A stretch of DNA of 64,000 bases from a phage. Both the position numbers and the translations under genes were made by a program. Shown here one piece after another: positions 5,882-7,843 of the stretch (position 1 is its first letter; each line of letters opens with the position of its first letter). The stretch lies in NCBI GenBank assembly GCA_024674815.1, contig GCA_024674815.1_4104.1. One strand, given 5' to 3'. The notes beneath the pieces were generated by a model that saw only the letters and a program-made list of their open reading frames with translations, made no database searches and was not told the origin of the DNA.

Positions 5882-6652
5882 TTAAATTTTCTCAAGGAAC
5901 AAGTTTTCGCACTGCTCTTCCCAATCGTATGGGTTGTTGTTATATACTGCCGAAATCAACAGTGGCATACGCAGTGAAGGTGAACGAAGAGAATCTTCGT
6001 GCTTCAACATCCAGTTCAGAATTGCTTTACTACCATTACGGTTAATACCCTTAGATTCTAAAATGTTAGTCTGATTCATCACGTTCTCAATGTGAATCAT
6101 GATATCGCTTTTGGTCTGAATCTGTAAGTCAACGTATACAGAACGAGACATAAGAGCAGCATAGTGAGCAGACATTTTCGTTTTAGCTTTAGCATCTAAT
6201 GCTAAATCTTTGTTAGTGATGAATACGATACGACCGTTAAAATCAAAGCTGTTAGGGATACCGTTAGTGGTTAAGTACTTAGAGCTAGTCATGTAAGACA
6301 CAGTACGTTTACCGCTGTCCAGTACTGCTTTGAGCAGGTTCATACCGTCTTCTGAATCAAAGATGCTGTCCATATCATCCAGTACTAATACGTTAGTGCT
6401 GTGACGATTCTTGTACAGAACTTCGTACAGAGCCAGAGTAGTCATTTTACCACTGATGGTAGCTACGTTCCATTCTGCTGCGTCATGAGCTTTCTGGAGG
6501 CGTTTAGACAGGGTGTAAGTCTTACCAACACCAGGAGCACCACTGACAACCATACTTTTTACAGTACTGCTATCGTCGAGCAAACACTCAAGAGCAACCA
6601 TCATGGAGTTGAAGTTTTTCTGGATTTGAATGCTACGTGCTTCTCTGGTCAT
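5882..6652 (-). CDS. P-loop NTPase (AAA-like ATPase)
   Basis: Walker A GAPGVGKT; Walker B VLVLDDMD; locally GC-richer codon usage. Confidence 0.8.
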   Translation of the reverse strand: MTREARSIQIQKNFNSMMVALECLLDDSSTVKSMVVSGAPGVGKTYTLSKRLQKAHDAAEWNVATISGKMTTLALYEVLYKNRHSTNVLVLDDMDSIFDSEDGMNLLKAVLDSGKRTVSYMTSSKYLTTNGIPNSFDFNGRIVFITNKDLALDAKAKTKMSAHYAALMSRSVYVDLQIQTKSDIMIHIENVMNQTNILESKGINRNGSKAILNWMLKHEDSLRSPSLRMPLLISAVYNNNPYDWEEQCENLFLEKI

Positions 6653-6680
6653 TTCGTTATCCTCATCAGTTGATGAAATA

Positions 6681-6718
6681 ATTATAGCAAAAAGGGCCGA
6701 CCGAAGTCAACCCTTTTC
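6681..6718 (-). promoter_or_regulatory. PeSL-like cassette: terminator hairpin overlapping sigma70-type promoter
   Basis: Minus strand: GGGUUGAC-UUCG-GUCGGCCC + U-run; TTGACT in stem, 18-nt spacer, TATAAT. Confidence 0.6.
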
Positions 6719-6721
6719 TTG

Positions 6722-7843
6722 TTATTGTTTTACACCACCCCATTTTTCATAGATGGCAATAATTTTATCTATGTTGTTTGGTGTCGTAGTTTCAGTATAC
6801 CCATCCGGCATTTCACGTTTAGTTAAAATACCTTTTCCAAACAGTTTCTTGCATTCTTTTTCAGCTTGCTTACACTGTTCTACCGTTGGGAATAGATAAA
6901 AACATATTATTTCAACATTAAATACTGATTTACTATTTTGCTGGTAAACACGTTTCCCTTTTTGTTTTTCAATACCATATTTCAATGCAACGGGTAAACC
7001 ATTGTCTGAAATATTATTAATATAAGCATATTTCTGTGAAAGCCCAGCAGCAAGTGGATGTCCCTGACCCTTAAAAAAATTACTTGGTAGAATATCAAAC
7101 TCACCAAATTCAGGATCAATAATAGTTACTTTTGTTTTGTTATTAATATAATTAACTTTACTATAATCAAAATCAACATCAGTTCTTCTTTTTTTTGCTT
7201 CTTCAATGAATTGCTCTGTTGTTTTTTTTACGGTGCCACCACGCATTGGATGTCCACTACCACTCAAAAAATTACCAGGTGTAACTTCAAACTCACCAAA
7301 TTCAGGATCAATAATAGTTATTTTTGTATGATAATTAATATAATTAACTTTACTATAATCAAAATCAACATCAGTTCTTCTTTTTTTTGCTTCTTCAATG
7401 AATTGTTCAGTTGATGATGAGCGTGATTTTTTTTGTACCATTCTACCACGTGCAAAATGATTTATACCACTCAAAAAACTATTTGGTAGAATATCAAACT
7501 CACCAAATTCAGGATCAATAATAGTTATTTTCGTTTTAGCATTAATATAATTAACTTTACTATAATCAAAATCAATATCAGTTCTTCTTTCTTTCGCTAA
7601 AGAAATAAAGTGTTCTTTGGATTGTGTAAGTTTTTTTGATATTTTTTGTCTTCCACGCATAAGATGTCCACTACCACGTAGAAAACTATCTGGTGTAATA
7701 TCAAACTCACCAAATTCAGGATCAATAATAGTTACTTTTGTTTTGTTATTAATATAATTAACTTTACTATAATCAAAATCAACATCAGTTCTTCTTTTTT
7801 TTGCTTCTTCAATGAATTGTTCAGTTGTTTTTTTAGCACACAT
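6722..7843 (-). CDS. tandem-repeat protein (4 x ~60 aa), possible homing-endonuclease-like DNA-binding protein
   Basis: Four repeats of TEQFIEEAKKRRTDVDFDYSKVNYIN-KTK-TIIDPEFGEF; distinct C-terminal domain. Confidence 0.6.
   Translation of the reverse strand: MCAKKTTEQFIEEAKKRRTDVDFDYSKVNYINNKTKVTIIDPEFGEFDITPDSFLRGSGHLMRGRQKISKKLTQSKEHFISLAKERRTDIDFDYSKVNYINAKTKITIIDPEFGEFDILPNSFLSGINHFARGRMVQKKSRSSSTEQFIEEAKKRRTDVDFDYSKVNYINYHTKITIIDPEFGEFEVTPGNFLSGSGHPMRGGTVKKTTEQFIEEAKKRRTDVDFDYSKVNYINNKTKVTIIDPEFGEFDILPSNFFKGQGHPLAAGLSQKYAYINNISDNGLPVALKYGIEKQKGKRVYQQNSKSVFNVEIICFYLFPTVEQCKQAEKECKKLFGKGILTKREMPDGYTETTTPNNIDKIIAIYEKWGGVKQ
7050..7843. repeat. four tandem ~180-bp near-identical DNA repeats inside CDS 6722..7843
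   Basis: Near-identical stretches at ~7141-7210, 7321-7390, 7561-7620, 7741-7810. Confidence 0.8.

Follow-up and report, generated by a model that had tools for sequence, protein, structure and literature searches.

Whether two genes that stand side by side also belong together is the question raised by positions 5,882 to 7,843 of a 64,000-nucleotide (nt) stretch of phage DNA (NCBI GenBank assembly GCA_024674815.1, contig GCA_024674815.1_4104.1; the whole stretch is referred to below as the window), where the open reading frames (ORFs) of a P-loop ATPase and of a protein built from four tandem repeats lie adjacent on the minus strand. An earlier note on this DNA had suggested that the two could form a mobile or selfish module, a replication initiator/loader pair or a defence-related pair. 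Our analysis confirms the observation itself, as coordinates, ORFs, Walker A (GAPGVGKT) and Walker B (VLVLDDMD) are all as described, and it supports the interpretation in part. We consider it quite probable that the repeat gene (6722..7843, minus strand) is a free-standing homing endonuclease gene belonging to the T5orf172 branch of the GIY-YIG superfamily, whereas the ATPase gene (5882..6652, minus strand) is, judging from sequence comparisons, a resident conserved phage gene unrelated to it. In megablast searches the region 5500-8200 aligns, piecewise only and with 86-97% identity, to jumbo coliphages of the Asteriusvirus group such as PBECO4, 121Q, phAPEC6 and slurp01, and by this measure the source is an Asteriusvirus-like jumbo coliphage.

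Architecture of the repeat protein

The repeat gene encodes a protein of 373 amino acids (aa) with four units, R1 at aa 6-61 (7661..7828), R2 at aa 75-130 (7454..7621), R3 at aa 144-199 (7247..7414) and R4 at aa 208-263 (7055..7222), and a C-terminal domain at aa 264-373 (6725..7054; minus strand, like the units) that the earlier note had overlooked. An AlphaFold2 model with a predicted local distance difference test (pLDDT) score of 92.7 displays four small helix-plus-hairpin domains, and then a beta-beta-alpha-beta-alpha-alpha domain at residues 272-367, which is the order of elements in the GIY-YIG fold. Foldseek comparison against viral models returned CapR-homology, Zinc-ribbon domain-containing, T5orf172 and GIY-YIG proteins, with E values down to 1e-39. 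In PHROGs the protein falls into phrog_681, annotated 'endonuclease' (1.1e-59), and a large protein collection yielded 4,758 homologs, many of them with PF05265 (DUF723), PF14311 (DUF4379, a treble-clef zinc finger) or PF21817 (CapR homology), and some with PF10544 (T5orf172), PF13455 (MUG113) or PF04480. An exhaustive search with the four-module array matched 16,826 representative clusters.

The C-terminal 110 residues match 265 phage records in tblastn, among them the ICP1 gene annotated 'tcgB putative homing endonuclease' (40.6% identity, E 2e-15) and the endonucleases of phages phi92 and muut (46-47% identity; 47% for muut). In BLASTP the repeat protein aligns with TcgB at 2e-30 and 34% identity over 207 aa, a stretch spanning the last module together with the nuclease domain, and the repeat unit aligns with the CapR-domain region of TcgB. 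CapR domains are present in all three of TcgB, phi92 gp222 and muut gp103, and the Pfam T5orf172 cut-off of 20 bits is passed by TcgB (21.2 bits) and by phi92 gp222 (20.2 bits). Within an alignment of 14 nuclease domains the T5orf172 model matches seven and MUG113 five, and in the nuclease-domain alignment that includes TcgB, phi92 and muut the residues Y274, K288, G290, R298, D347, G348, E351 and T352 are invariant. Y274 on strand 1, R298 on helix 1 and E351 within DGYTET would correspond to the catalytic Tyr, Arg and Glu of GIY-YIG enzymes, E351 having been matched by position to the I-TevI/Odn E180 described in PMC8263062, with Odn itself lying outside the alignment. Together, the PHROG assignment, the homologs, the fold and the resemblance to TcgB point to a T5orf172-type endonuclease whose N-terminal part is built from an array of CapR-like modules, which bears out the earlier suggestion that the repeats are a cysteine-less form of the modules found N-terminal to T5orf172/GIY-YIG homing endonucleases.

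The domains involved have been domesticated repeatedly (PMC8263062, PMC8096241, bioRxiv 10.64898/2026.02.23.707548), and the gene could instead be a domesticated derivative of a homing endonuclease, acting as an anti-satellite or anti-competitor nuclease like ICP1 Odn or as a sequence-specific repressor like CapR and CasPR. The similarity to muut speaks for this, as PMC10448857 names muut as one of three coliphages whose T5orf172 nucleases are Odn-like; in muut gp103 itself we see CapR modules and no RepA_N. On the other hand, the intact catalytic residues argue against a pure repressor, and the repeat protein possesses neither RepA_N nor any other host- or satellite-derived recognition domain. 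Together with the rapid turnover of the gene described below, this makes domestication decidedly unlikely in our judgement.

Evolution and zinc ligands of the units

At the DNA level the repeats are real and far beyond chance. Tandem Repeats Finder reports a period of 207 with 3.8 copies for the gene, and a repeat search located 4 copies of 175 nt at spacings of 192, 207 and 207 that are 79-91% identical to the reference copy. Compared unit against unit, DNA identity is 80-90%, with a longest exact run of 123 nt between R1 and R4, and R2 is the most divergent of the four; the description of the repeats as near-identical was thus an overstatement. Mutual aa identity among R1, R3 and R4 (82-89%) compares with at most 82% against any unit of any relative. 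The units are also uneven along their length: codons 1-42 of R1, R3 and R4 share 95.8% DNA identity, whereas codons 43-56 share 70.6%, with 20 non-synonymous versus 3 synonymous codon differences. Cores that are 96% identical joined to diversified tails (the end of the hairpin plus a short helix) suggest recent intragenic duplication or homogenisation of the core accompanied by diversification of the tail. The sequence therefore fits the recent origin proposed in the earlier note, and the 14-residue C-terminal tails are, from their diversification, probably the specificity-determining part of each unit. Tail diversification would also fit the arms race expected of a domesticated nuclease or repressor.

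Unit number varies among relatives that possess the same nuclease domain, with 2 units in P0012, 3 in P0003 and a different, longer array in phAPEC6. In tblastn searches we found no paralogs of the unit or of the nuclease domain elsewhere in the 64 kb window. The repeat gene is at the 4th percentile of the window in guanine-plus-cytosine (GC) content, with a GC of 0.13 at third codon positions (GC3).

CapR-type modules depend for their DNA binding on a CxxC...CxC zinc site (PMC8096241; bioRxiv 10.64898/2026.02.23.707548). R1 is a cysteine-less CapR/DUF723-like module, and in fact all four units lack the zinc ligands (CxxC/H ... CxC) and have D-x2-F ... H-x2-R/A instead, which agrees with the absence of cysteines remarked upon earlier and places D, F, H and R/A at the ligand positions. 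To see how common this is, a hidden Markov model of the unit was applied to the 123 closest proteins and recovered 743 units, of which 596 have Cys at ligand 1 (mostly in a C-H-C pattern); in 142 (19%), ligands 1, 2 and 3 are D, Y/F and H/N/S, respectively. Eighteen of these proteins are entirely Cys-less and another 18 are mixed. Among the 950 units of the 136 nearest 50%-cluster representatives the D-type makes up approximately 3%. By sequence, then, the zinc-free module is a real but minority variant, occurring mostly in the closest relatives of the source phage, among which are some Klebsiella jumbo phages. Variation of the third ligand position between H, N and S argues against an alternative conserved metal site.

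We also noted that the 628-aa phAPEC6 allele (phAPEC6 locus 3721-5607) has a third Cys-less pattern, T-H-P-x-Y-G ... G-H-P, with His at ligand position 1, and zinc-free modules therefore exist in more than one form. Should the modules of the window protein still bind DNA, they would illustrate how a metal-free core can take the place of a treble-clef zinc ribbon, and recently duplicated tandem units with diversified tails would offer natural material for decoding how the array reads DNA.

The slot, its cassettes and the neighbouring ATPase

The endonuclease gene overlaps its upstream neighbour. This upstream gene (7833..8072, minus strand; phrog_34150) encodes 79 aa and runs past the start codon of the endonuclease, with an overlap of 11 nt, and an AAGGAG ribosome-binding site within its 3' end lies 9 nt upstream of the endonuclease ATG. 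Salmonella phage SD-15_S21 provides a precise empty site for this arrangement, in which window positions 5910-6720 match its locus 3326-4136 and 7843-8513 match 4135-4805. The insert is thus the whole ORF, with boundaries at 6721-7842 within an A-run and no target duplication relative to SD-15_S21, and in the empty allele the upstream gene runs into the hairpin described below and is 88 aa long instead of 79. The slot is empty also in SD-6_S16, and in UE-S1 the ATPase gene lacks an adjacent endonuclease gene.

Where the slot is filled, its content differs from phage to phage. In phAPEC6 it holds the 628-aa allele, which has the first 26 nt and the nuclease domain in common with the window gene and a different module array, and E9.1 has an allele of the phAPEC6 type that is split by a frameshift. 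In WPEC5 both strands bear decayed fragments. The slot of 121Q contains a small ORF together with a phrog_681 endonuclease that has a CapR domain, that of PBECO4 a phrog_681 endonuclease with cysteines, and that of Turkey3 two unrelated ORFs. One of the Turkey3 ORFs (Turkey3 locus 5272-6687) ends in MYKLGHT...R...GDGHTETF behind a different, Cys-rich N-terminus; by eye this end looks T5orf172-type, and it has no Pfam or PHROG match.

Presence/absence polymorphism between conserved genes without target-site duplication is what distinguishes free-standing endonuclease genes of the T4 type, and slot turnover of this kind is their signature (PMC2988022). The slot between the 79-aa and ATPase genes is an endonuclease hot-spot in Asteriusvirus genomes. 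A gene that is dispensable and quickly turned over in close relatives, as empty, frameshifted, decayed and replaced alleles attest, follows a selfish-gene pattern and not the one expected of a domesticated function.

The ATPase on the other side of the slot behaves quite differently. The 256-aa protein has Walker A, Walker B, sensor 1, an Arg finger, sensor 2 and an AAA+ fold with lid, and these features together with homology place it in the AAA+ NrdC.10 family. It matches phrog_1250 at 8.6e-104 (profile positions 77-326) and is found by tblastn in 1,309 phage records, including T4-type phages in which it is annotated nrdC.10, the T4-type NrdC.10 being 40% identical over approximately 210 aa (E about 1e-43). 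In eight of eight relatives it is 96-100% identical, whatever occupies the adjacent slot.

Its base composition is unusual, as had been observed: with a GC content of 0.411 against 0.334 for the window it lies at the 99.8th percentile of 771-nt windows, no other gene-sized stretch of the window is as rich in GC, and its GC3 of 0.44 compares with 0.13-0.35 in neighbouring genes. The recent acquisition read into this composition does not hold, however, since orthologs that are only 58% and 40% identical to the window protein are likewise richer in GC than their surroundings (UE-S1, 0.389 vs 0.334; a T4-like phage, 0.364 vs 0.331), which marks the excess as an old trait inherent in the gene. The suggestion of a mobile or selfish element stands accordingly for the repeat gene and falls for the ATPase, a conserved resident that lies outside the mobile element.

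This bears directly on the idea that ATPase and repeat protein constitute a functional two-gene module, be it a replication initiator with its loader or a defence or anti-defence pair. The genes are adjacent and on the same strand, the ATPase weakly resembles Orc1/Cdc6, Hda and RFC around Walker A, and the 3-unit relative P0003 likewise sits directly upstream of the ATPase gene in another phage. Yet the ATPase has no repeat-protein neighbour in the large majority of the 1,309 records, including close relatives with an empty slot and UE-S1, its sequence is unchanged whatever the slot holds, a strong hairpin and a separate promoter lie between the two genes, and PADLOC gave no matches of note. 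Judged by this lack of co-occurrence the two-gene module is largely refuted, and we regard it as extremely improbable: the ATPase is a conserved phage gene independent of its repeat-gene neighbour, an outcome that the earlier note had itself named as a refutation. An 'ATPase' gene likewise precedes the phi92 and muut endonuclease genes; it encodes an unrelated protein and lends the pairing no support.

Two further observations concern the surroundings of the ATPase gene. In the T4-like Escherichia phage vB-Eco-KMB22 (phage locus 3767-5451) an annotated homing endonuclease gene directly follows nrdC.10, and in T4 mobD adjoins nrdC.11 (PMC2988022); the NrdC.10 neighbourhood may thus attract endonuclease genes in unrelated phage groups. 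When 5882-6720 was compared with eight relatives, nucleotide differences were clustered in patches (approximately 6120-6360 in 121Q, SD-15_S21 and PBECO4, and approximately 5940-6180 in WPEC5 and Turkey3) while protein identity remained at 96-100%, a pattern that is a recombination mosaic, the patches possibly being co-conversion tracts.

The intergenic region between the endonuclease and ATPase genes is occupied by a terminator-promoter cassette (6681..6718, minus strand). Here AAAGGGTTGACTTCGGTCGGCCCTTTTTGCTATAAT forms a hairpin with a 13-bp stem (6689-6718; -18 kcal/mol, z-score -5.2 by RNA folding) that overlaps a TTGACT-18-TATAAT promoter (TTGACT at 6705-6710, TATAAT at 6681-6686; 11/12 in a promoter scan). 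In general, the cassette spans some 35-70 nt. Its parts are an A-run, a GGGTTGAC-TTCG-GTCRGCCC hairpin and a T-run, together with a TTGACT-18-TATAAT promoter whose -35 box falls within the stem. The hairpin escaped the terminator scan and was borne out by folding (z-scores -5.2 and -5.5), and an Rfam search of 5000-10000 gave no match. Five copies occur in the window against 0 expected, all on the minus strand (6681-6713, 8099-8131, 9381-9413, 13952-13984 and 19805-19837). PeSL-type elements are defined by a conserved stem-loop joined to a sigma-70-type promoter that recurs between genes and flanks variable ORFs, and the cassette fits this definition.

The endonuclease gene has neither a promoter nor a cassette of its own and its ATG overlaps the end of the 79-aa gene, from which we predict that it is co-transcribed with that gene and not with the ATPase; the second cassette (8099..8131, minus strand), upstream of the 79-aa gene, is the likely promoter of this transcript. 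Co-transcription of ATPase and repeat gene, which had been put forward as a check, is not what the layout indicates, as a hairpin terminator and a separate promoter intervene.

Relatives of the endonuclease gene add a further layer to this picture. P0003 precedes the ATPase gene in a phage that has neither the 79-aa gene nor denV, P0012 lies upstream of denV, and WPEC5 has a second copy ahead of the 79-aa gene; at each of these three loci a cassette stands on both sides. The 5' untranslated region (UTR) of the cassette-flanked relatives, GGAGTTTTAA.TAATG, agrees with the sequence at the 3' end of the 79-aa gene, which suggests that a cassette-flanked module may have been inserted and its upstream cassette then lost through microhomology.

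From such data the endonuclease could also be seen as a passive passenger, moved by homologous recombination between PeSL-like cassettes (mini-circle excision and integration) with no need of its own nuclease. The five cassettes of the window, the flanked relatives at three different loci and a microhomology that could account for the missing upstream cassette all speak for such a route, whose mechanism is documented in T4-like phages (PMC2839356, PMC4122927). It leaves unexplained why this slot in particular gathers endonuclease genes of several lineages and why the nuclease motifs are intact, and we hold it to be unlikely. The two routes are not mutually exclusive.

At three loci, in front of the ATPase gene, the 79-aa gene and denV, members of the lineage have a cassette copy directly downstream. 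Although speculative, it is tempting to think of the cassette as the landing pad of the lineage, with homing and cassette shuffling coupled and the zinc-free modules forming a recently expanded, re-targetable array. We rate this as unlikely; if true, the recognition code of the array could be read from natural variants.

Returning to a homing endonuclease, the mechanism that we envisage takes as its basis the architecture, fold, homology, precise presence/absence polymorphism, slot turnover and regulatory signals observed at this locus. The four tandem CapR/DUF723-like modules would act as a beads-on-a-string DNA-recognition array that positions the C-terminal GIY-YIG-type nuclease, and the putative nuclease would cut a site in the endonuclease-less genomes of co-infecting relatives. 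Repair of the break from an endonuclease-carrying genome would then copy the gene and its flanking markers into the slot between the 79-aa and ATPase genes. The ATPase gene possibly carries the target, or may lie near it, and would be a neighbour rather than a partner. As a promoter-less cassette the endonuclease would borrow the promoter of the 79-aa gene, while the hairpin-plus-promoter cassette downstream of it would drive the ATPase separately.

Several points weigh against this reading. The repeat protein has no match to the Pfam models of T5orf172, MUG113, GIY-YIG, CapR, DUF723 or DUF4379 even at E = 10, so that its family membership rests on transitive homology and fold; a precomputed 'weak' PF05265 match is on record for the protein and its relatives. 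Pfam, NCBIfam and PADLOC scans of the protein, a single unit and the C-terminal domain gave spurious low-complexity matches only, PDB sequence searches with the protein and with a nuclease-domain profile returned nothing meaningful, and a single protein came back from a word-indexed homolog search that used just the 110-aa nuclease domain. The zinc ligands that CapR and CasPR need for DNA binding are absent from its modules, whose binding to DNA is therefore putative. A target or cleavage site was sought and none identified, and maps of single-nucleotide polymorphism density in the flanks of eight relatives displayed mosaic patches with no interpretable target or co-conversion signal. Movement could, finally, proceed through cassette-cassette recombination rather than nuclease-driven homing.

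Apart from these elements, plus-strand ORFs within the region are short and unsupported. Directly downstream of the ATPase gene, 3377-5816 (minus strand) contains seven consecutive small ORFs of 104-141 aa that are multi-pass-membrane-like, overlap or abut one another and share only 16-26% mutual identity, an apparent tandem family that is conserved in relatives. A homolog of T4 endonuclease V (denV) lies at 8837-9352 (minus strand), and just upstream of it a 45-aa ORF (9357-9494, minus strand) with a CSNHHRMVH motif overlaps the third cassette copy; it has no Pfam match and could be an HNH remnant. Farther away, six tRNA genes (Thr, Asn, Met, Ser, Ser and Gly) are clustered on the minus strand at 40551-45813, a 161-nt tandem repeat is present in 2.1 copies at 44166-44510, and a promoter-like TTGACTAAATAGTTCAGTACTG(A)TATAAT is duplicated at 43506 and 43986.

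Relation to known systems

The closest parallels are the T5orf172 homing endonucleases of Vibrio phage ICP1 (such as TcgB/gp130 and gp174) and of phi92-like coliphages, a group known for repeated CapR/DUF723/DUF4379 modules, DNA-level repeats and domain swapping (Barth, Dunham & Seed 2023, PMC10448857). As in the window protein, repeated modules of these types precede a C-terminal T5orf172 nuclease, and intragenic DNA repeats, variable module number, swapping of arrays between alleles and conserved-gene neighbours are likewise held in common. In contrast to them, the window protein lacks the Cys/His ligands in every one of its modules, escapes the relevant Pfam models and resides in an Asteriusvirus-like jumbo phage.

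CapR, a repressor of the PLE satellite, and the anti-CRISPR repressors CasPR share a homologous DNA-binding module, in tandem copies in some members. They possess no active nuclease domain and need their four cysteines (PMC8096241; bioRxiv 10.64898/2026.02.23.707548), whereas the window protein combines a complete nuclease domain with cysteine-less modules.

In T4, promoter-less free-standing endonuclease genes sit between conserved genes and have their targets in neighbouring genes (Edgell et al. 2010, PMC2988022). The Seg (GIY-YIG) and Mob (HNH) genes resemble the present one in being intergenic promoter-less cassettes between conserved genes that borrow an upstream promoter, and the T4 free-standing endonucleases also share presence/absence polymorphism among relatives and a GIY-YIG-superfamily catalytic domain. 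Seg proteins and I-TevI differ in carrying the nuclease at the N-terminus, which is the reverse order, and in having different DNA-binding modules, and homing in the present case is something that we infer. The neighbouring ATPase parallels T4 NrdC.10 in its AAA+ motifs, its mild GC excess and 40% identity over approximately 210 aa, and differs from T4-type NrdC.10 proteins in lacking their N-terminal extension of approximately 70 aa.

The cassettes have their counterpart in the PeSL motifs of T4-like phages, which also consist of a stem-loop with an A-run, G3...C3 and a T-run together with a near-consensus sigma-70 promoter, and which are likewise repeated in intergenic regions where they bracket variable ORFs (Arbiol et al. 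2010, PMC2839356; Comeau et al. 2014, PMC4122927). The window cassettes differ in sequence, in belonging to a phage that is not of the T4-like kind and in having the -35 box within the stem, and cassette recombination is what we infer from the arrangement. With the cassette-flanked copies, PeSL-like modular shuffling would reach beyond the T4 group into jumbo phages.

Viewed against these systems the outcome is mainly one of annotation tidying, a 'hypothetical' repeat protein becoming a probable T5orf172-type homing endonuclease and its neighbour an NrdC.10-family AAA+ ATPase. The element is an ordinary and already described kind of selfish gene with one unusual detail, its rare zinc-free DNA-binding modules, and it is of modest wider interest that a module reported to need four cysteines has a natural zinc-free form with D, F or Y, and H, N or S at the ligand positions.

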